Shown here: one piece after another, positions 1 to 13,829 of the stretch
How positions within the stretch are numbered: position 1 is the first letter of the stretch
Layout: each line of letters starts with the position of its first letter
Origin: a virus
Strand: one strand, 5' to 3'
DNA length: 13,829 nt
UHGV virus genome: UHGV-0094592
The notes under the pieces: model-generated
What the model saw: the letters and a program-made list of their open reading frames with translations, nothing else
Databases searched by the model: none
Told to the model about the DNA's origin: nothing
Program-made: the position numbers and the translations under genes

Positions 1-1409
1 CCATGGTCAGAGCCGAAGAACAGGAAGTTTTTACGACCCAGACTGACCGCCCGCAAGGCATTTTCAGCGATGTTGTTGTCGATTTCCACCCAGCCATTAC
101 TGCAGTACACGTTCAGGGCCTTCCACTGTTTCAGTAGGTATGCGAACGCTTTTGCCGTATCCGAGTGACGCGACAGTGTTTTCATCTGTTGCTGTATCCG
201 GTCATACAGTGACTGCATCAGTGGCGCGGCTCTTGCTTTTCTTGCCGCCAGACGCTGTTCTGCTGAACATCCCCGGACTTCTGCCTCGATGGTATACAGT
301 TCACCGATACGCTGCAGGGCTTCCGTGGTGATGTCGGTTGGCACTCTTGCATGCACATCGTGGATTTTTCTCCGGGCATGGGCCATACACGCAGCTTCCG
401 TTATTCTGCCGGATTCGTATAACGCCCGGTAACCACCGTAAGCATCTGCCTGAAGCACACCGCTGTAACCGGCTAGGTGATTCTGTGGATGGATACCTTT
501 CCGGTCCGGGCTGTACGCGAACCAGACCGCCGGGGGCATCTGTGAACCGGCGTTACGGTCATCACGGACATAGACCCACAGCCGGGCAGTTCTTGTTTTA
601 CCACTGCCCGGCTCCTGGACCGGAACGGGGATATCATCCGCATGAACTTTACCGGGCATCAGTACATACTGGCGCAGGACGTCATACAGCGGCTCCAGCA
701 GTTCAGCAACGGCACCGGTCCAGCGACCCAGTGTGGCACGGCTCAGCTCCACGCCCTGACGACGGTATATTTCTGACTGGCGGTATAACGGCAGATGGTC
801 TGCATATTTTCCAGCGACAACATGGGCCAGAAGCCCCGCTCCGGCATAACTGCGTGCAATGGGTTTTGAAGGCACCGGAGCCTGCACGATATGGTCGCAC
901 CGGCAACAGGCCAGTTTCGGACGTTGTGTTTCGATAACCTTAAAGGCGCTGCTGATAAGCTCCAGTTGCTCTGACACATCACATCCCAGAGAACTGAGTT
1001 CGCCACCACAGGCAGGACAGCATTCCTCTTCCGGCCGGATAACCCGGGTTTCTCGGGGAAGTGAGGCCGGTAACGGTTTACGGGCTGAAGACTGGCGCAG
1101 TGCAGATGGCAGTGCCGGGTCATATTGCTCACCCAGCGTTTCCGCCATTTCTTCCTGAAGTGCGCTGATTCGCTCCTGTGCTTCCTGTATCTGTCGTTCG
1201 GTTTTTGCGCGAAGTTTTTCTGAGCTTTTACCGAACTGCATGCGCTGCAGTTTTGCAATCAGCGCCTTCAGCCGGTTGATTTCGGAAGCATAAGCCGCCA
1301 CCCGCAGTGAGAGCAGGCGGTTATATTCGGCCATCTGGCGGATGGTGTCCTGTTGCGTCTGCAACAGCGCCCGCAGGCGGGCATTCTCATGAGCAAGTGA
1401 GGTGTCCAT
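1..1409 (-). CDS. tnpC: IS66-family transposase TnpC (orf3), 5' 469 codons; 3' end lies beyond the left window edge
   Basis: Uninterrupted minus-strand frame from ATG at 1409-1407 to the window edge (codon phase 5..3); absent from the ORF track because there is no in-window stop. Translation starts [25 protein letters not shown] and contains a CPACGG...CCRCDH zinc-finger-like motif and the conserved IS66 transposase core ending ...[13 protein letters not shown] at the edge. RBS GTGAGGA lies just upstream. Confidence 0.9.
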
Positions 1410-1428
1410 ATCCTCACTTTACAACGGG

Positions 1429-1776
1429 TTATATACGGATTCCAGCGCGTTCTGTTCGTTTCGGGTGCTTCCAGTTGATACCTTCAAGAAGCATAGATAA
1501 CTGAGCCGGAGTAAGGTGAACCTTTCCATCGCGGGTGACCGGCCAGACGAAGCGGCCCCGTTCCAGGCGTTTGGTGAAGAGGCACAGTCCGTCGCTGTCA
1601 GCCCACAACACTTTTATCTGGTCACCCCGGCGTCCGCAAAAGATGAACAGATGCCCGGAGAACGGGTCATCCTTCAGGACGTTCTGAACTTTTGATGCCA
1701 GGCCGTTAAAACCATTTCGCATATCGGTAATACCGGCAACCAGCCAGATACGCGAACCGGCAGGGAGAGATATAAT
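1429..1776 (-). CDS. tnpB: IS66-family TnpB (orf2); conserved N-terminus begins at a non-ATG codon
   Basis: ORF track gives 1429..1722 (MRNGFNGLASKVQNVLKDDPFSGHLFIFCGRRGD...), but the same frame continues upstream without a stop as ISLPAGSRIWLVAGITD-MRNGFNGL, matching the IS66 TnpB N-terminus as I recall it. The only codon at the conserved start position is ATT (1776-1774), overlapping the tnpA TGA stop. Confidence 0.75.
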   Translation of the reverse strand: MISLPAGSRIWLVAGITDMRNGFNGLASKVQNVLKDDPFSGHLFIFCGRRGDQIKVLWADSDGLCLFTKRLERGRFVWPVTRDGKVHLTPAQLSMLLEGINWKHPKRTERAGIRI

Positions 1777-2387
1777 CAGTGGCTGCTCCCTTTCATTTCG
1801 CGGATAAGTGTCTGTAATAACGCCGGCGTCAGTTCACCTTTCAGCCTGAGAGTTCCGGCCGGCAGAACCAGCTCACAGCACAGACTGTCGGGCGGTGTAT
1901 TTATCTGCTCAGGTTCCTGTGCGGGTGCCGGGATTTTATTATCCGGCTCCGGCGTTAACGTCACGGGAAGTAGCGATGTTTCATGTTCGCCGGGCGGCTG
2001 CAGGCCGCCGTTACGCCAGAGATGCCGCCAGTTAAAGAGCAGGTTATCGTTGATTCCGTTCTCGCGAGCTATTTGTGCGACACAGGCACCGGGTAAAAGA
2101 GTTTGCTGAACAAGTCTCCATTTAAACTCCTGTGAAAATCGGTTCCGGCGGTTTTTCTCTGTTTTCACAGTCTGAGTTACTGTCGGGGCTGAAGGGTATC
2201 GCCCCGGGAAAAGAGCCCGGGCCAGTTGCATGCAGGAATATTCACCGGAAAGAGGCCAGTCAGCGAATATCTGGTGAAATCGCCTCACCAGAGAAAAAAT
2301 GGCGGTTTTGCTGACACCGGTCTGCGCAGAAATGCGCGGGTACGACAGTGACTCGTCAAATCTCAGTTGTAGCACACGCAGGATCAA
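1776..2387 (-). CDS. tnpA: IS66-family accessory protein TnpA (orf1) with a predicted N-terminal HTH; start codon uncertain (TTG at 2387 or downstream)
   Basis: 203-codon minus ORF directly upstream of tnpB. HTH-like segment ISAQTGVSKTAIFSLVRRF and the conserved IAREN-GINDNLLFNWRHLWRNG motif typical of IS66 orf1. Confidence 0.8.
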   Translation of the reverse strand: MILRVLQLRFDESLSYPRISAQTGVSKTAIFSLVRRFHQIFADWPLSGEYSCMQLARALFPGRYPSAPTVTQTVKTEKNRRNRFSQEFKWRLVQQTLLPGACVAQIARENGINDNLLFNWRHLWRNGGLQPPGEHETSLLPVTLTPEPDNKIPAPAQEPEQINTPPDSLCCELVLPAGTLRLKGELTPALLQTLIREMKGSSH

Positions 2388-2420
2388 TTCCGGATTATCT
2401 GCCAGTACCGCCTTTTGTGC

Positions 2421-2453
2421 GTAAGCGTCAACGGAGCACCGTATTGACGCTTA
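2421..2453. repeat. IS66-type terminal inverted-repeat-like sequence (GTAAGCGTCAA...TTGACGCTTAT), internally palindromic
   Basis: Plus strand reads GTAAGCGTCAACGGAGCACCGTATTGACGCTTAT. IS66-family ends characteristically start GTAAGCG. It sits between the tnpC 3' fragment stop (2451-2453) and the tnpA start. Confidence 0.6.
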
Positions 2454-2636
2454 TTTATTGGTGAGTACTACGTTCCATGGCAGGAGTTCGCCAACTCGGT
2501 TGGAAGGCCATTCCGGCAGTACGCTCAGAATATGGCGCAGATACGCTTCCGGATCGATACCGTTCAGACGGCAGGTGCCGATCAGCCCGTACAGCAGTGC
2601 TCCACGCTCGCCGCCGTGATCGCTACCGAAGAACAC
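2451..2636 (-). pseudogene. Detached 3' fragment of an IS66 transposase (TnpC C-terminal 61 codons)
   Basis: Translation VFFGSDHGGERGALLYGLIGTCRLNGIDPEAYLRHILSVLPEWPSNRVGELLPWNVVLTNK is the C-terminal tail of IS66 TnpC. Its first residues (FFGSDHG) duplicate the last residues of the tnpC copy cut by the window edge. Homology stops abruptly near 2637. Confidence 0.85.
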
Positions 2637-2699
2637 GTAGATGATATGACCTTTATATACTCACTATAGCATTGGTGGGATATTCCAGAGGAGGTCATC

Positions 2700-2954
2700 A
2701 TGCATTCGGAAAATATTGCGGCTTACGTCGGGCTGGATGTGCATAAAGAAACGTTGGCGGTTGCTATTGCTGCACCTGAACGGCTTGGCGAAGTTCGTTA
2801 TTATGGTACGATTAACAACGAAGCCCAGGCTGTACGTCGATTATTTCAGAAATTGCAGGGACTTTACGGAAACATTCTTTCCTGCTATGAGGCTGGCCCC
2901 TGTGGTTTTGGGCTATATCATCAACTCACGATATTTATAATTAAATGCGCATAA
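2700..2954 (+). pseudogene. IS110-family transposase, N-terminal fragment (84 codons, truncated)
   Basis: MHSENIAAYVGLDVHKETLAVAIA...CYEAGPCGFGLYHQL carries the IS110-family N-terminal signatures (GxDxxK and CYEAxG). Strong RBS GGAGG 7 nt upstream. Full-length IS110-family transposases are several-fold longer as far as I recall, and this ORF ends after only 84 codons. Confidence 0.75.
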
Positions 2955-3005
2955 CTTATTGAATTTAACCAACAAACATCGCTGCAAATAACGTTAAAAA
3001 TCGCA

Positions 3006-3030
3006 AATTAACTACACCATTAACTACACC
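3006..3030. repeat. Island-boundary direct repeat, left copy (AATTAACTACACCATTAACTACACC; tandem 12-mer ATTAACTACACC x2); candidate att/arm site
   Basis: Perfect 25/25 identity to 13622-13646; imperfect homology continues about 45 bp to the right of both copies. Confidence 0.75.
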
Positions 3031-3521
3031 GTTCGGTGCACTGTATGCAACAATGCGGAACAAATAGACACAAGCGACGGGCTATACCGTTATCATTTTC
3101 CGGCTATCCGCCATGAAGCTGGTGGATGATCACGGATAAACCGTTATGGAAGTCCCCATATCGGCATCATGCCCACCAGCGAGATTAGTTATCTGGTTGC
3201 TGATGGGAGGCTGACGAACCTCGATGCTAGGGTGCGCAAAACTAGTGAGACCTTTTTTCTCTGCAACAGGCCCATAATTCGCGTTTTCTTTGTCTGCCGT
3301 AAGGTGGGGGATTTTTGGCGGATCCAGCAATGGCGCGGATTTTGTGATTTTTTATAGATAGACCTCATCTATCAATCCCGTGCACACCTTCCCAAAAAAA
3401 GTTTTCGAACCTGCGGCGATGTGAACAAGGGTAGGCGGGCGGTCCCATAAGCAATGAGGTGTAGGGATTTCTATCCCCCTGGGGGTATTAAACACCACCC
3501 GATTTAAATACCGTCTTTTTT

Positions 3522-3917: not shown

Positions 3918-4460
3918 TTACTCGCCTTTGTTCTGTAGCAACTTCTCAGGCGCGCTTCCGGTAGTTTCCATCAGGTAATCAGCCAGTATCTGTGGCAGGT
4001 TTTCGTCAAGTCTTGCACATGCGTTACATGCTTTGGCTATTTCCCTTTTTAGTTCATCCAGCATATACGGCCTTATATCGGGAAAGCGCCTTTGCATTGT
4101 GAGCGGGAGGCTGTCCATGATTGATGAAATCTGACTCGCTAGTTTTGAAATCGCGTAGATGCAAAACTTTGTATCAATCACCTCGCCGCGTTCGCGCTCG
4201 TTTTTAAGTTCCTGCGCTTCCGCCTGTGCTGTCAGCAATCTGATTCTTACGCGTAAAAGTTCATCATCATCAATCTCGCCTTTGTCGTTTGTAAGCTGGT
4301 TAATTGCATTGTTAACCCTATTGTCTATCACGCTAGCAACATCATAAAACGCCTCACGGCCTTTACGCTCAACGGGAGTTACTCCCCACTTGTCGAACGC
4401 TGTCGCACTTACGCGGCAGCTTTGCGCCATAGTTTTTTTGTTCATCAGGTGCGATTTCAT
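3918..4460 (-). CDS. Terminase small subunit, phage lambda Nu1-like
   Basis: Translation (...RLLTAQAEAQELKNERERGEVIDTKFCIYAISKLASQISSIMDSLPLTMQRRFPD...) matches lambda gpNu1 as I recall it (RLTRAQADAQELKNARDSAEVVETAFCTFVLSRIAGEIASILDGLPLSVQRRFPE). ORF track start is GTG 4472; ATG at 4460 has RBS GGGGA and ATG at 4445 aligns with the Nu1 N-terminus (M..NKK). Confidence 0.85.
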   Translation of the reverse strand: MKSHLMNKKTMAQSCRVSATAFDKWGVTPVERKGREAFYDVASVIDNRVNNAINQLTNDKGEIDDDELLRVRIRLLTAQAEAQELKNERERGEVIDTKFCIYAISKLASQISSIMDSLPLTMQRRFPDIRPYMLDELKREIAKACNACARLDENLPQILADYLMETTGSAPEKLLQNKGE

Positions 4461-4472
4461 CAATATCCCCAC

Positions 4473-4637
4473 TTAGTTAAGGTTTCAGGTTGGTGTGTTG
4501 GTGTTATCTTTCCCTTTTTATTCATAGAGATAGAGCGAAAAACAAAACCACCACCACCAACCCGAAAAGGCTCATAAATAGCGAAAATCCGCAAGGTCGC
4601 CGCCCCGTAACGGGTCCATATGCCGGAAAGGACCCGT
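4473..4637 (-). other. Lambda-type cos site (cosQ-cosN-cosB) with exact cosN 12-mer GGGCGGCGACCT (minus strand, 4605..4594)
   Basis: Minus strand reads ...TTTACGGGTCCTTTCCGG-CATATGGACCCGTTACG-GGGCGGCGACCT-TGCGGATTTTCGCTATTTATGAGCCTTTTCGGG. Lambda right and left ends read ...TTTACGGGTCCTTTCCGGTGATCCGACAGGTTACG / GGGCGGCGACCTCGCGGGTTTTCGCTATTTATGAAAATTTTCCGG. It lies directly upstream of the Nu1-like gene, as in lambda. Confidence 0.85.
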
Positions 4638-4666: not shown

Positions 4667-5080
4667 TCAGATGGTTTTCAGTATGCGATCGACGTCGCCT
4701 TCATCGCCCTGGTTTCTGCCGTCGTATGCCATGCCGGGTGATACGGCTTTCGGGCTGTGCATGTCCATAAAGTTTTCAAAGGCTGCGGTAAGCTCCGGCG
4801 CAACCTTCGGGCGCTCCTGCTCTATGGTCATGTTCAGGATTTCACGAGCATTATCGACGCTAATACATGGCACGTTTGCCATTGCACGTAACAGCGGCTG
4901 ATAGTCGTTATGTTCATGAAGCGCCATAATCGCATCAGCGCGCGGCTTGTCCTGCTCTTCCAGTTTGTTGAGTTGATATACGGCCTCGTAGGTTGATAAA
5001 CCTCTGTCAGCCATTGCCCGCGCTTCTGCTTTAAATTTACTCGCCAGCGGTAGCGCCATGATGCTTTCATTCGTTGCCAT
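4667..5080 (-). CDS. Hypothetical capsid-module protein (137 aa), acidic; possible scaffold or size-determination factor
   Basis: ORF with RBS AGGGGAA 3 nt upstream of ATG 5080; sits between the gpD-like gene and the terminator/cos. No confident family assignment. Confidence 0.6.
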   Translation of the reverse strand: MATNESIMALPLASKFKAEARAMADRGLSTYEAVYQLNKLEEQDKPRADAIMALHEHNDYQPLLRAMANVPCISVDNAREILNMTIEQERPKVAPELTAAFENFMDMHSPKAVSPGMAYDGRNQGDEGDVDRILKTI

Positions 5081-7116: not shown

Positions 7117-7539
7117 TTAAAACGGTATGTTATCCCCGTACGGATCATCATTCCCCGCCTGTTGTTTTGCCCTGTTCAGCGCGTCAGTAGCCTGGCCCTG
7201 TTGACCTTTTTTGCCGCCCAGTCGCGCCGTTCGCGCACTGATTACACTGTCTGCGATAACCTGCCAGCCCTGCCGCGTTTCTCCGTTCTGCCCAGTCCAC
7301 TGGCTGATCTGCATGTTACCCGCCACGCTCAGGAGTTCACCCTTGCGGTGCCTTTCCAGTGCTTCGGCCTGTCTGCCAAATGCCAGGACGGATAACCACA
7401 TCGTCGCCGTTCCGTCATCTGCCTGGCTGCACGGAAGGGGGACCGCCATACGCGCCAGCGTCATCGGTGTGCCCTTGCTGGTCTGTTTTACCTGCGGGTC
7501 GTCCACCAGCCGCCCGTAAGCTGCTATCTGTGCTGTCAT
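7117..7539 (-). CDS. ssb: Single-stranded DNA-binding protein (SSB-like OB-fold with C-terminal ...DNIPF tail)
   Basis: 140 aa. N-terminal OB-fold pattern resembles E. coli SSB; the protein ends ...NDDPYGDNIPF, an acidic IPF tail like the DDDIPF tail of E. coli SSB. Start overlaps the upstream gene stop (ATGA). Confidence 0.8.
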   Translation of the reverse strand: MTAQIAAYGRLVDDPQVKQTSKGTPMTLARMAVPLPCSQADDGTATMWLSVLAFGRQAEALERHRKGELLSVAGNMQISQWTGQNGETRQGWQVIADSVISARTARLGGKKGQQGQATDALNRAKQQAGNDDPYGDNIPF

Positions 7540-7787
7540 GATTCCACCTCTCCGGTTTTAACGTTGATGGTTGTTACCTGTTCCGCTTCGGCAATCTCCC
7601 GCTCTGTCAGCGTGGCAAAATTTGCCGCCGTCGTGGTCATGAATGCGCTTATCAGTTCGGGATGTGCTTTCGCGTATCCTTCCCCCGCGTGGCGGTCTAT
7701 CGTTCTGATTGCCACCTTTAAAGCGTGCTCTGTCATGTCTAACGCTTTATATTTTGGCGCTGTCTTATCTCTGGTTTTTCTGGTCAT
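7536..7787 (-). CDS. Hypothetical protein (83 aa), translationally coupled to ssb
   Basis: ORF immediately downstream of the iteron region; stop overlaps the ssb start. Confidence 0.55.
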   Translation of the reverse strand: MTRKTRDKTAPKYKALDMTEHALKVAIRTIDRHAGEGYAKAHPELISAFMTTTAANFATLTEREIAEAEQVTTINVKTGEVES

Positions 7788-7796
7788 TCCTCACTG

Positions 7797-7990
7797 CTCC
7801 CCACTTTTACTACCCACTTTTTGAAATTACCCAACGTCTCCCCACTTCTTTTTTTTGTGATTCTAACGTGATGTTTTTCAATGTGTTTTTTATTCCCCAC
7901 TTTTTGGGGTATATACAGGTGGGAAAGTGGGGAATCACGTTTCAATTTTGTTAAATTCCCCACACTCCCCACTTTTACTACCCACTTTTT
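7797..7990. repeat. Putative origin of replication: iteron array (CCCCACTTTT family) flanking an AT-rich core
   Basis: 23-bp direct repeat CTCCCCACTTTTACTACCCACTTTT at 7797-7821 and 7965-7989. Additional TCCCCACTT copies at 7837-7848, 7893-7905, 7957-7966 and an inverted copy at 7924-7934. Located directly 3' of the helicase gene. Confidence 0.7.
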
Positions 7991-9404
7991 ACAGTGGGCG
8001 CACGTCATCACCGTCAATAGCAATAACGCCATCACCTTCCAGCTTGTACAGCCAGCGCCGGAAGTGTTTCATCTCATACCCCAGCTTTTTCATATCATCG
8101 CGCAACAACGGAATAGTGCATTTATCTCCGCGCTGTGTGCGTGAACGGATACAGCCCCATAGCGCGGCATGATTCTCCGTCTTGTTCCCGGCTTCCTCGA
8201 TGCGCTCCAGTTCAACGGGTGGGCGCGGCTTATCCACAACAACCAGCGACGTGATTAACTCCCCGTCAGTGTCGGTAAAAAGCTCCACCACACGTAAATC
8301 GTATGCGGCCTCTTTCAGTTCCTCCGCGTCCTTCATTTTTGTGCAGGAGATAACCAGGGCTTCACTGTCTGCACCTTCACGGCGAATACGGTATTCAGCG
8401 TCCAGAGATGCACGAAATGCACTGGAACCACGCGCCCCCTTTGTTTCATCCTTGCCGGAATGGTGAACCACCAGCACCGTGGCCCCTGTGCGGCGTTTCA
8501 GTTCGTCACATCCACGGATAAACGCCCCCATATCCCGCGCGTCATTTTCATCATTACCGCCAAAGCAACGCGCCAGCGTATCAAGAATAATCATGCGTAC
8601 CGGTTTACCCGTTTCCCGTTCAACCTGGCGGGAAGCGATGACCATTTCATCAACATCAAGCGGGACTGCCGGAAAAATCGGGCGGTTTACCAGGTACAGA
8701 TTTTCCACCCGTTCATCATTAACGATTTCCCATGCCTTGATACGGCGGGGGACACCAATGCCACCTTCACCGACAACATACATCACCGAACCATGCGCCA
8801 CCCTGCGGCCTCCCCAGTGACGGCCAGTGGCAACATGACACGCCCAGGAACACGCGAGGAACGATTTATAGGAACCGCTCGCGCCGTATGTGCTGCACAA
8901 TGAATTAGCCGGAATCACGCCCTTAACGACATAATCAAGCTGTGTGTCGTACCCTGCAGATCCAATGCTCATTGGTAGCGTGGTTTTTCGCTGGCTGTAT
9001 TGCTCGTCAGTAAGTATTTCCCCGCGCTCTGCCTGTTCGCGGATCCGTTGCAGGTAGTCGTGCCAGTTCTCCAGCTTCTGGCTGTGCATTCCATCAGGGT
9101 AATAATTCGCATCCCGTACACCTGCCGCCGCCAGCTTTTGCCCGATAGCATTAATATTTGACGGCTTGATGTGGCCTGCCTTGTACAGCCGGACACAATA
9201 GCGACCATCGTCGATAATTTTCAGGTCTGCCAGTTCGTCAAGCTGGCTGTCTCCCAGCCATACAGGCGGGACGTTATCACCAGCAAGTCGCCCGTCCTGT
9301 TCCTGCCACTGTTTCGCGTGCGCCCAGGCATCACTACCCGCAAAAATAATGACTTCGGTCATTTTGTCGTGTGGCTGTTTTTTTAAGTTCGGTGCCAGTT
9401 TCAT
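7989..9404 (-). CDS. Replication helicase, RepA/AAA_25-like P-loop NTPase with an N-terminal domain of unknown function
   Basis: 471 aa. P-loop-like YGASGSYKSF, Walker B-like RMIILDTLARCFGG and the VLVVHHSGKD motif typical of RepA/AAA_25-type helicases. RBS AGGGG. Start overlaps the upstream stop (ATGA). Confidence 0.8.
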   Translation of the reverse strand: MKLAPNLKKQPHDKMTEVIIFAGSDAWAHAKQWQEQDGRLAGDNVPPVWLGDSQLDELADLKIIDDGRYCVRLYKAGHIKPSNINAIGQKLAAAGVRDANYYPDGMHSQKLENWHDYLQRIREQAERGEILTDEQYSQRKTTLPMSIGSAGYDTQLDYVVKGVIPANSLCSTYGASGSYKSFLACSWACHVATGRHWGGRRVAHGSVMYVVGEGGIGVPRRIKAWEIVNDERVENLYLVNRPIFPAVPLDVDEMVIASRQVERETGKPVRMIILDTLARCFGGNDENDARDMGAFIRGCDELKRRTGATVLVVHHSGKDETKGARGSSAFRASLDAEYRIRREGADSEALVISCTKMKDAEELKEAAYDLRVVELFTDTDGELITSLVVVDKPRPPVELERIEEAGNKTENHAALWGCIRSRTQRGDKCTIPLLRDDMKKLGYEMKHFRRWLYKLEGDGVIAIDGDDVRPL

Positions 9405-9700
9405 TTTTTGCCCCTGAATGCGTTAATCATGTTTTTCATTTTCTGAATATTTGCCCGTGCCTTTGCGTTGCTGGTGGGCTGTTTGCGTGGTGTGGCCTGT
9501 ATCAGTGAAAAATCACGCCGGAACTGATAAGCAGGCATCACGCAGTCATAGCCGTACCCATCACGGCGGTAAGTAACGCACCGCCCCGCCACGCTTTTAA
9601 TCGTTACCGTGCCACCGTAGTTATCCCGGAAAATATCGCCGGGGCGGATTTCAGGCCGAGGGAGACCACTGGCAGTAAAGCCAGAATTTTTCTGTTTCAT
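9401..9700 (-). CDS. Hypothetical protein (99 aa), basic
   Basis: ORF with GGAG upstream; operon member immediately 5' of the helicase gene. Confidence 0.55.
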   Translation of the reverse strand: MKQKNSGFTASGLPRPEIRPGDIFRDNYGGTVTIKSVAGRCVTYRRDGYGYDCVMPAYQFRRDFSLIQATPRKQPTSNAKARANIQKMKNMINAFRGKK

Positions 9701-10571: not shown

Positions 10572-11762
10572 CTATCGTTGGTGGTTAGACGCCCCGTATG
10601 TGTTTCCGGCACTGCGGGGCGTTGCTCTTTGTATTTCAACAATTCTTTTGGTGTGTTTCATGTTATGAGCGCATGAAACACACGTCAAGGCTTTTTGTAT
10701 TTCTTTTTTTGTGTATACTGAAACACACCGATGATTAGGAGTTTCAGAAATGGCAACGGCTAACAAAAACGCAAAATCACAACTGACAACTGTCAGAGTC
10801 CCACTAGATGTTATGCAAGGGATGGAATCCGTTAAGCTGGACGGCGAAAGCAATGCCGGATTTATCGTAACCGCCATGCGCGGAGAAATAGCCCGCCGCC
10901 AAGCAGAAGGCAGCGGAGAAAATCCCCTTGTGTCGTCACTGGATGCCCTGGCTAAGGTCGAACAAATCGGCATCAAAGCAGCGGAAGAAATCGGGCAGCT
11001 TGTCACCGTTGCACGCGAAGAACTCCAGCGTCGCAAGACCAAAGAACCAGAGTAATCACCATCAGCGCCGTGGTGTAAGGTATTACGGCGCATTGCTATG
11101 CAGGACAACACAATGACCGATAAAGAATTGACCAAAACATTATCACCGGCACGGAAAAGACGGCGCAGAAAGATAGAGCATGAATCAGAAAGATTCGCGC
11201 CATGTGCTTTTGCTCTTGAGAAATTCCTTAAAGAGCACAGGAAAAAGCTCTCGTTGCAAACCTTGGAACGAACCAAATCTGACTGATCACATTGCCCACC
11301 AGCCGCAAATGTGGCATTGTTGGTGATGCTCATGCGTTGGGGATAACGTGTAGCTTGTGTCGAGGGGCCACCGTAGCGGGTGGCCTTTGTTTTGCCTGTT
11401 ATCCGGCAATTGTGGCGCTTCGCCACACGGTTGATATAATCCCACTGCTCAGATTCATTTTTTGCGCAGTAGGTTAATTGTTCACAAAGGCGCTCCGGCA
11501 ACGGGGCGCTTTTTGTTTTTATTAGTTTGTAGAAACCTGACTCAGAGATAATGCTCATATTCTGATTGCCGTCAGGGGTGTAAGTTAAATTTACTCCCTT
11601 TTTATCATCAAACATCTGCAACGCTCTGGCGTTAACAATATTGGTTTCACTCCCGCCAGTAAGGCCGGAAATAACCGGAATAATTTCGGCAAAATTTTGC
11701 AGATTCTGTTTTTCAGGACGAACGAAGCCCCGCCCTTGTTCGGGAGAATATCCAGTATTCAT
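10572..11762 (-). CDS. Long open frame; only the N-terminal ~100 codons (from ATG 11762) look protein-like, with a possible Bro-N/KilA-N-like motif. The rest is probably non-coding or a pseudogene remnant
   Basis: N-terminus contains IISESGFYKLIKTKS, resembling a Bro-N-type motif as I recall it. The C-terminal two thirds are Ser/Cys/Arg-rich and antisense to two plus-strand ORFs with good RBSs, and span two plus-oriented terminators. Confidence 0.3.
   Translation of the reverse strand: MNTGYSPEQGRGFVRPEKQNLQNFAEIIPVISGLTGGSETNIVNARALQMFDDKKGVNLTYTPDGNQNMSIISESGFYKLIKTKSAPLPERLCEQLTYCAKNESEQWDYINRVAKRHNCRITGKTKATRYGGPSTQATRYPQRMSITNNATFAAGGQCDQSDLVRSKVCNESFFLCSLRNFSRAKAHGANLSDSCSIFLRRLFRAGDNVLVNSLSVIVLSCIAMRRNTLHHGADGDYSGSLVLRRWSSSRATVTSCPISSAALMPICSTLARASSDDTRGFSPLPSAWRRAISPRMAVTINPALLSPSSLTDSIPCITSSGTLTVVSCDFAFLLAVAISETPNHRCVSVYTKKEIQKALTCVSCAHNMKHTKRIVEIQRATPRSAGNTYGASNHQR
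10651..10688 (-). promoter_or_regulatory. Sigma70-like promoter for the minus-strand operon (TTGACG-17-TAACAT) fully overlapped by a 12-bp inverted-repeat operator
   Basis: Minus strand -35 TTGACG (10688..10683) and -10 TAACAT (10665..10660). Operator GTGTGTTTCATG-9bp-CATGAAACACAC spans 10651-10683. Related GAAACACA sites lie at 10720-10728 and in the hairpin loop at 10596-10627. Confidence 0.6.
10750..11055 (+). CDS. Hypothetical regulator-like protein (101 aa), divergently transcribed from the island operons; candidate repressor
   Basis: Strong RBS TAGGAG 8 nt upstream. Plausible -10 TATACT (10714-10719) with an operator half-site at the predicted start. Balanced composition; N-terminal beta-strand plus helix pattern (TTVRVPLDVMQGMESVKL) reminiscent of ribbon-helix-helix proteins. 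Confidence 0.6.
   Translation: MATANKNAKSQLTTVRVPLDVMQGMESVKLDGESNAGFIVTAMRGEIARRQAEGSGENPLVSSLDALAKVEQIGIKAAEEIGQLVTVAREELQRRKTKEPE
11113..11286 (+). CDS. Hypothetical small basic protein (57 aa; ORF track lists 11098..11286)
   Basis: ATG at 11113 has AGGA 7 nt upstream; very basic (RKRRRRK) N-terminal segment. Confidence 0.45.
   Translation: MTDKELTKTLSPARKRRRRKIEHESERFAPCAFALEKFLKEHRKKLSLQTLERTKSD
11366..11393 (+). terminator. Rho-independent terminator (stem GGCCACC/GGTGGCC, then TTTGTTTT) for the plus-strand unit
   Basis: Perfect 7-bp stem with 6-nt loop and a T-rich tail on the plus strand. Confidence 0.6.
11490..11520 (+). terminator. Second plus-strand rho-independent terminator (stem GCGCTCCG/CGGGGCGC, GCAA tetraloop, TTTTTGTTTTT)
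   Basis: 8-bp stem with one G-U pair, GNRA-type loop, and 11-nt T-rich tail. Confidence 0.65.
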
Positions 11763-13621: not shown

Positions 13622-13646
13622 AATTAACTACACCATTAACTACACC
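13622..13646. repeat. Island-boundary direct repeat, right copy (AATTAACTACACCATTAACTACACC), immediately upstream of int
   Basis: Identical to 3006-3030. Confidence 0.75.
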
Positions 13647-13829
13647 GATCATTGCACAAGGGGGTACAACGTGGAACAAGTTGGAACAAGAAAAATTGCA
13701 ATGAGCTTAAAAATCAAAAACATAATGAACAACGTGGCACATTATGAAACAGCAAAAAACACTAATTTATAAAATCACAGCGATGAATATAAAATGCCAG
13801 GTTATTGCCCCTTCCCGCATACCAAAATC

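Follow-up and report, generated by a model that had tools for sequence, protein, structure and literature searches.

An iteron array immediately 3' of the rep helicase gene as the predicted replication origin of the phage-inducible chromosomal island EcCIDI14

We analysed a stretch of viral DNA of 13,829 nucleotides (hereafter, the window) and identified the segment 7788–7990 as, in all likelihood, the replication origin (ori) of the phage-inducible chromosomal island (PICI) EcCIDI14, an assignment based on comparison of sequences. The stretch was 100% identical to Escherichia coli clone D i14, and the island is catalogued as PICI EcCIDI14 (CP002212 249047–259688, 10.6 kb) in Table S1 of Fillol-Salom et al. 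2018 (PMC6092414). That paper places PICI origins immediately 3' of the rep/initiator gene and describes, for all of the PICIs identified there, an AT-rich region flanked by two sets of iterons. It also shows that a rep–ori segment of EcCICFT073 supports plasmid maintenance, which is impaired by deletion of rep or ori. The only PICI origin bench-tested in that work was the one of EcCICFT073, the Rep of which belongs to a different superfamily.

The genes of the window were those of such an island. On the minus strand, a tyrosine integrase, AlpA, an Icd-like protein, a DUF4222 protein and an AAA_25 ‘RepA family’ helicase were followed by the repeat region and, beyond it, by an 83-aa gene, SSB, a lambda-E-type major capsid protein, a D-type decoration protein, a scaffold-like protein and a TerS homologue. 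The integrase, AlpA, the rep gene and the unidirectional operon were thus all present, at the PICI size of about 10–15 kb and with no tail or lysis genes; neither portal, protease nor large terminase genes were found in the window. The putative origin, first proposed from the letters of the DNA, was supported by the catalogued PICI, by the layout in the literature, by the conservation of this layout in relatives and by the covariation of the iterons with a helix of the helicase. Its kind is very probably already known, namely, an ordinary PICI origin in a catalogued island. The features of the origin and its surroundings are listed in Table 1.

Table 1. Features of the predicted EcCIDI14 origin, of the neighbouring genes, and of the layout shared by related loci (offsets in nt from the helicase stop)
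Feature	Position	Strand	Basis or remark
Stop-proximal iteron cluster, three direct copies, AAGTGGG(G/T)A in helicase sense	7955..7990	-	last copy enters TAA stop
Short A+T-rich spacer, 77%	7936..7957	.	composition
Inverted iteron(s): AAAGTGGGGAAT (7924-7935) and degenerate AGGTGGGA (7917-7924)	7917..7935	+	repeats
Conserved GTATATAC element	7909..7916	.	between inverted iteron and next direct iteron
Single direct iteron	7892..7905	-	with 7924-7935, perfect 12-nt inverted repeat around TATATA element
A+T-rich core, 76%, T-rich on plus strand, presumed unwinding region	7848..7893	.	composition and relatives
Distal iteron cluster, three good copies (7799, 7812, 7840) and one degenerate (7828)	7797..7847	-	repeats
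Rep, 471-aa RepA-family (AAA_25, RecA-fold, SF4-like) helicase, presumed initiator-helicase	7989..9404	-	Pfam, PDB, Foldseek, RefSeq
Rep C-terminal domain, aa 395-471, predicted winged helix, proposed iteron reader	7992..8222	-	AF2 and Foldseek
His447 and predicted recognition helix, aa 447-457 (HFRRWLYKLEG)	8034..8066	-	residue 447 tracks iteron core
83-aa gene, phrog_1231, function unannotated	7536..7787	-	directly after repeat array; conserved replication block
SSB	7117..7539	-	after 83-aa gene; conserved replication block
DUF4222 gene	9401..9700	-	directly upstream of rep; conserved replication block
TerS homologue	3918..4460	-	phrog_57, E = 8e-53
137-aa protein, phrog_1999	4667..5080	-	adjoins capsid E and decoration D genes
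Relatives: 2-3 direct iterons	offset 3-30	helicase direction	relatives mapped
Relatives: inverted iteron	offset ~57		every relative; core changes together with direct copies
Relatives: conserved (C)TGTATATA(C)	offset ~70-80		relatives mapped
Relatives: direct iteron	offset ~88		relatives mapped
Relatives: 50-bp A+T-rich stretch	offset ~95-145		most relatives mapped; fainter in a few
Relatives: 3-5 direct iterons	offset 146-197		relatives mapped
Relatives: next gene start	offset ~204		E. coli relatives; farther in other genera

The repeats occupied an intergenic gap of 201 bp (7788–7988) between the two minus-strand genes encoding the helicase and the 83-aa protein. The sequence-only reading had described two direct repeats of 23 bp; the repeat was present and perfect (7797–7822 = 7965–7990), but its length was 26 bp. 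At least four further copies, including an inverted one, had also been claimed, and these were found: exact CCCCACTT was detected on the plus strand at 7799, 7840, 7895 and 7967 and on the minus strand at 7925–7932, ACCCACTT at 7812 and 7980, and degenerate copies at approximately 7828 (ACCCAACG), at 7958 (CCCCACAC) and, inverted, at 7917–7924 (AGGTGGGA). In addition, 7892–7903 and 7924–7935 formed a perfect inverted repeat of 12 nt. The A+T-rich core expected amid the repeats was confirmed at 7848–7893 (76% A+T; 28 T and 7 A on the plus strand), and a second stretch, 7936–7957, reached 77%, compared with 50% for the whole window. As had likewise been noticed, the array directly followed a replication helicase gene, and its final iteron overlapped the stop codon of that gene: the TAA lies at 7989–7991, and the T-run of the last repeat, which extends to 7990, overlaps it by two bases.

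Given the general T-richness of the region, and nothing else, the array might be regarded as a functionless chance or decaying low-complexity tract. However, seven of the nine window copies of CCCACTT fell within 7788–7991, where the rate outside predicts 0.03 per 204 nt (Poisson P = 4e-15), and the commonest 7-mer occurred seven times, compared with a maximum of four in 2000 dinucleotide-preserving shuffles (0/2000 reached the observed count). Moreover, the positions of the copies were conserved and their core changed in concert across genera. This enrichment and conservation exclude the chance reading, the probability of which we consider negligible.

To compare related loci, we scanned one genome per species and obtained 80 loci across Enterobacterales. 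The usable set consisted of 62 loci, namely, 58 from the scan, the window and three E. coli relatives, and approximately 65 related loci were compared overall. The gap was aligned with that of the E. coli relatives, which are 91%, 84% and 82% identical to it in nucleotide sequence; each iteron stayed in its place in these relatives, and the core was altered at every copy, including the inverted one. The layout given in Table 1 was common to all relatives mapped in Escherichia, Xenorhabdus, Kosakonia, Phytobacter, Pectobacterium and Morganella, with differing cores. In the window, the stop-proximal and distal clusters flank the 76% A+T stretch and a central convergent pair of iterons, which is the layout of PICI origins, and the array begins inside the helicase stop, immediately 3' of the initiator gene, as in all relatives examined. 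The element (C)TGTATATA(C), or a near variant, was found at the same place in the E. coli, Xenorhabdus, Kosakonia, Phytobacter, Pectobacterium, Morganella and MAG loci. Among the 62 loci, the commonest 8-mer in the 320 nt after the helicase stop was nearly confined to those 320 nt. Sequence related to 7700–8100 was detected in at least 933 of 5426 complete E. coli genomes, and the island of the intact O157 relative measured 10.4 kb between roxA and phoQ.

Two further observations concern the edges of the array. The distal cluster ends approximately 5 nt from the Shine–Dalgarno sequence of the next gene, just upstream of it. On the coding strand, this Shine–Dalgarno region of the 83-aa gene (7788–7796) reads CAGTGAGGAATG, in the manner of a GTGAGG-type iteron, and the corresponding position of RM9131 holds a true GTGGGG copy; the ribosome-binding site of the 83-aa gene may be derived from a former iteron. 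In two islands of the H447N type described below (L089 3180–3300 and L090 3170–3290), a second, partial origin-like unit was observed approximately 190 bp downstream of the first origin, consisting of an inverted iteron, GCGTATATATA, a direct iteron, an A+T-rich stretch and more GTGAG copies.

The iteron core followed the helicase. The window and RM9131 had the core CCCCACTT, O45:H2 had NCCCACTT and O157:H7 had C(T/C)TCACTT, while islands with the same 83-aa gene and SSB but a D5-type Rep carried unrelated TCTACC iterons at the same place. Across the 62 loci, the core sorted by the start of the C-terminal recognition helix; only three KNF loci clearly departed from this rule. Helices starting with KHF or KHL were associated with AGTGGG(G/T)A; KNF with AGTGAGG, in the E. 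coli O157 lineage and in 700-aa Xenorhabdus proteins; RKSF with AGTGCGGC (GTGCGGC type); and xKKF with AGTGGGGG (GTGGGGG type). A natural point variant was also found: the last 77 aa of the P0030 protein are those of the window except for H447N, and its locus carries AAAGTGAGG (GTGAGG) at each iteron position. P0058 showed the same pattern, with H447N and GTGAGG iterons. The covariation, the H447N variant and the contrast with D5-type islands each point to iterons specific for the cognate Rep, as in PICI origins.

The three exceptional loci, two from Xenorhabdus and one from an Enterobacteriaceae MAG (L009, L018 and L030), have a KNF helix but AATGAGGAA instead of AAGTGAGGA, and share ‘LENDGLITRN’ after the helix. 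Residue 447 is therefore not the sole determinant of specificity, and a second one is likely. Among six Xenorhabdus genomes with two usable islands, no sign of incompatibility avoidance was seen, five of the six pairs sharing their iteron type and one (L025/L030) differing.

Which part of Rep would read the iterons was judged from its two ends. The N-terminal 131 aa (nt 9012–9404) were 63% identical to the N-terminus of EcCICFT073 Pri-Rep (L088 8242–8643), beyond which the two proteins were unrelated, and therefore this N-terminal module has been shuffled between two helicase superfamilies in PICIs. The O45 N-terminal domain was strongly diverged, yet the iterons of O45 match those of the window, and the O157 N-terminal domain was almost the same as that of RM9131, yet their iterons differ. 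The earlier expectation that the N-terminal domain would bind the repeats is thus probably wrong, in view both of these mismatches and of the sharing of this domain with an EcCICFT073 protein whose iterons are unrelated. Since the N-terminal domain fails to track the iterons, an assay of its binding would probably be negative, and the C-terminal domain is the candidate.

It is also conceivable that the repeats are read by another island protein, namely, the 83-aa product, DUF4222 or AlpA, since these small genes were found in tight linkage with the array in each of the islands examined. However, the 83-aa protein was 94% identical in islands with unrelated Rep and TCTACC iterons, and so is not the iteron reader; an identical DUF4222 protein (WP_000770163.1) stands beside both GTGGG(G) replicons (L002 and L003) and a TCTACC replicon (L006); and the core follows a single residue in the C-terminal domain of the helicase. 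We therefore regard a reader among these proteins as very unlikely. As far as such comparisons reach, the covariation shows Rep, or something inseparable from its C-terminus, as the presumptive reader of the repeats.

The protein itself is consistent with this role. Rep matched Pfam AAA_25 (E = 3e-44 over aa 152–320), its sole PDB sequence match was RSF1010 RepA (1g8y, E = 0.004), and its RefSeq annotation is ‘helicase RepA family protein’. The full-length AF2 model was mediocre (pLDDT 64), and the full-length fold search with Foldseek returned weak RecA-fold matches of the RAD51/RadA/DnaB type. When modelled alone, the C-terminal domain reached a pLDDT of 84.6 (>90 over aa 411–471) with the topology H-H-H-beta hairpin; residues 401–471 were modelled by AF2 at pLDDT 86–94 as three helices and a beta hairpin. 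Of the 50 best PDB matches of this domain in Foldseek, nearly all were winged-helix DNA-binding domains (DtxR, PcaR, LexA, MCM WH and DnaD-N), with probabilities of 0.9–0.98, TM scores of 0.55–0.68 and E values of 0.06–0.3, which for so short a domain are non-significant alone. In the predicted fold, the third helix, that of recognition, has residue 447 at its N-terminal end. No recognizable primase domain was detected in the Rep of the window, so priming presumably depends on the host, and no separate Rep initiator or RepC-like gene was found among the annotated genes of the window. In the N-terminal part, the motif ‘IIFAGSDAW’ resembles, as judged by eye, a Toprim strand without the catalytic Glu.

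From these associations, we tentatively propose, with slightly more doubt than confidence, that residue 447 acts as a one-residue/one-base switch, in which His would read G and Asn would read A at the third base of GTG-N-GG, with other variants of the helix start leading to GTGCGGC and GTGGGGG, and by which a self-loading SF4-type helicase would be retargeted while approximately nine iterons change in concert. If so, H447N would shift the preference of the C-terminal domain from AAGTGGGGA to AAGTGAGGA (GTGAGG), and these replicons would form a naturally re-programmable family of orthogonal Rep/ori pairs and an SF4 counterpart of the SF3/SF6 initiator-helicases of SaPIs, a counterpart not found described in the literature searched.

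Covariation testifies to recognition and not to initiation, and would be compatible, for example, with autoregulation. Rep might then bind the iterons chiefly for regulatory ends (rep autoregulation, controlled read-through into the 83-aa, SSB and capsid genes, or copy-number ‘handcuffing’), with initiation elsewhere. The array does lie between two co-oriented genes, with its distal cluster close to the next Shine–Dalgarno sequence, and iteron arrays in theta plasmids double as regulatory sites. However, no promoter-like site was found on either strand, no second iteron cluster was found in the window, and an unwinding site would be marked by just such an A+T-rich core and by a conserved TATATA element with convergent iterons on its two sides. 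In addition, the equivalent region of EcCICFT073 is needed for Rep-dependent plasmid maintenance according to PMC6092414. Taken together, a mainly regulatory array is improbable, although less so than a different reader, and the segment is better explained as the origin.

Several candidate elements in and around the array were considered and set aside. A scan of 7400–8400 detected neither sigma-70 promoter-like nor terminator-like sites on either strand, leaving a promoter/operator or terminator reading of the array unsupported. Outside the origin, exact CCCCACTT occurred only twice, at 4384–4391 and 4467–4474, one copy inside terS and the other just upstream of it. These copies could have formed a second, crr-like Rep-binding region, but they did not covary with the iteron type: in O157, which has GTGAG iterons, one of them stays GTGGGG within coding sequence and the other is not conserved. 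They were therefore treated as chance or coding sequence. The only perfect DnaA box (consensus TTATCCACA) was found at 8230–8238, inside the helicase gene and at a distance of approximately 240 bp from the origin. Three relatives (L002, L003 and L004) lack it at this position, and it is therefore probably due to chance.

The island also encodes a TerS homologue, and small terminases often bind arrays of short repeats, which would allow the array to be a packaging signal (pac or cos-like) for the small terminase. TerS type and iteron type were found to be uncoupled: the O157 TerS is 86% identical to that of the window, but is accompanied by GTGAG iterons, while the RM9131 TerS is unrelated, but is accompanied by GTGGGG iterons. 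Furthermore, the array is 3.3 kb from terS and stays with the helicase in loci without a nearby terS. The packaging reading was therefore rejected as extremely unlikely. EcCICFT073 reportedly has no TerS, and the position of the window's TerS is taken there by a different gene, of 144 aa (L088 13660–14094), indicating that the packaging module varies between otherwise collinear islands. The neighbouring phrog_1999 protein showed weak similarity to the C-terminal part of a head-maturation protease/scaffold (phrog_53, E = 1.5e-9).

We infer the steps of binding, melting, self-loading and actual replication as follows. A helper phage would turn on the leftward operon of the island, leading to synthesis of the 471-aa Rep helicase. 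The C-terminal winged-helix domain of Rep would bind the AAGTGGGG iterons of the two direct clusters, as well as the central head-to-head pair around the conserved GTATATAC. Oligomerization of Rep on this iteron scaffold may then open the 76% A+T stretch, on which the RecA-fold (SF4-like) helicase would load itself with no need for a separate initiator or loader, and the SSB of the island and the primase and polymerase of the host would take over, the host enzymes being invoked because Rep has no recognizable primase domain.

The surroundings of the island in clone D i14 differ from those of its relatives. It lies there within the aspV-side pathogenicity island, and its flanks (1–3500 and 13622–13829; L001) contain IS630, IS66 and IS110 fragments and a CbtA/YeeU toxin–antitoxin pair, whereas relatives of EcCIDI14 occupy clean sites at tRNA-Pro/yejM or roxA/phoQ. 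With IS fragments on its borders, EcCIDI14 may therefore no longer be mobile in clone D i14. An unannotated, low-complexity ORF of 396 aa (10572–11762, minus strand), which overlaps the annotated YlcI/YnfO gene (10750–11055, plus strand), is probably spurious. Neither a minus-strand gene nor an Rfam match was found in the approximately 1.1 kb between the Icd-like gene and alpA, and no RNA family was detected in the whole window at the Rfam gathering thresholds.

Once a helper phage has induced the island, such an origin would enable its amplification and frequent packaging, and is thus relevant to how PICI-borne traits spread in pathogenic E. coli. To what is known of PICI origins, the analysis adds a common replicon with a RecA-fold (SF4-like) helicase and its own predicted winged-helix reader, unlike the D5/SF3 enzyme of EcCICFT073; an origin layout conserved across Enterobacterales; and a natural His/Asn difference that predicts iteron specificity and possibly provides orthogonal Rep/ori pairs for plasmid engineering. 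It also confirms that the origin of a satellite is recognizable from raw sequence. A literal search of the literature for the iteron sequences returned irrelevant matches only. Neither the covariation of a winged-helix residue with the iterons nor an SF4-type helicase was found described in the literature searched, which includes the text of PMC6092414, a paper that draws iteron sequences of E. coli PICIs in its Fig. 2a.

Compared with known systems, EcCIDI14 is closest in organization to EcCICFT073, the type example for Gram-negative PICI origins and a member of the same island family. The two agree in gene order (int, alpA, Icd-like, DUF4222, rep, ori, 83-aa, SSB, capsid E and decoration D) and in the placement of the ori directly 3' of rep, where sets of iterons border an A+T-rich stretch. 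In contrast, the EcCICFT073 Rep is a 584-aa D5_N/DUF5906/Pox_D5 protein (SF3-type), whereas that of EcCIDI14 is a 471-aa AAA_25 protein with a RecA fold (SF4-like), and the TCTACC/GGTAGA iterons of the former are unrelated to the CCCCACTT/AAGTGGGG iterons of the latter. The T7 gp4-type primase-helicases of 680–700 aa, encoded in islands of Xenorhabdus, Pectobacterium, Serratia and Morganella, share with EcCIDI14 Rep the AAA_25 core, the predicted C-terminal winged-helix domain and the origin layout; their N-terminal part is a Zn_Ribbon_Prim and Toprim_3 primase, while EcCIDI14 Rep has the 135-aa domain common to EcCICFT073 Pri-Rep.

Theta plasmids such as pSC101, R6K, RK2, F and P1 have DnaA boxes beside their iterons and a non-helicase Rep, neither of which is the case in EcCIDI14. 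IncQ plasmid RSF1010 replicates from oriV with the RepA helicase, the RepC initiator and the RepB' primase; its iterons are read by the separate RepC, and its helicase is without a DNA-recognition domain. The helicase core of RSF1010 RepA belongs to the same AAA_25 family as EcCIDI14 Rep, but the latter has its own predicted winged-helix domain and no accompanying RepC-like gene. The satellite P4 encodes the multifunctional replication protein alpha, a primase and SF3 helicase whose C-terminal winged-helix domain binds octamer iterons, and which needs two separated iteron regions, ori and crr, as opposed to the single iteron region in the window of EcCIDI14.

The logic of the inferred mechanism is the one established for the Rep–ori replicons of Staphylococcus aureus pathogenicity islands (SaPIs; Ubeda et al. 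2007; PMC9371898). SaPI Rep is an initiator-helicase that loads itself and reads short iterons through a C-terminal winged-helix domain, and the SaPI ori lies directly downstream of rep, with an A+T-rich centre and iterons on both sides, some in the opposite orientation (PMC9371898). The placement of the origin and its A+T centre with two-sided iterons are alike in EcCIDI14, in which the winged-helix reader is predicted from models. SaPI Reps are AAA+ helicases of SF3/SF6 with 3'–5' polarity (PMC9371898), whereas the core of EcCIDI14 Rep is a RecA fold resembling RSF1010 RepA and DnaB; no sequence homology between the two Reps was detected, and the iterons are 5–6 bp in SaPIs and 8–11 bp in EcCIDI14. 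By analogy, EcCIDI14 Rep is an enzyme that would work like SaPI Rep while standing outside the SaPI Rep family.
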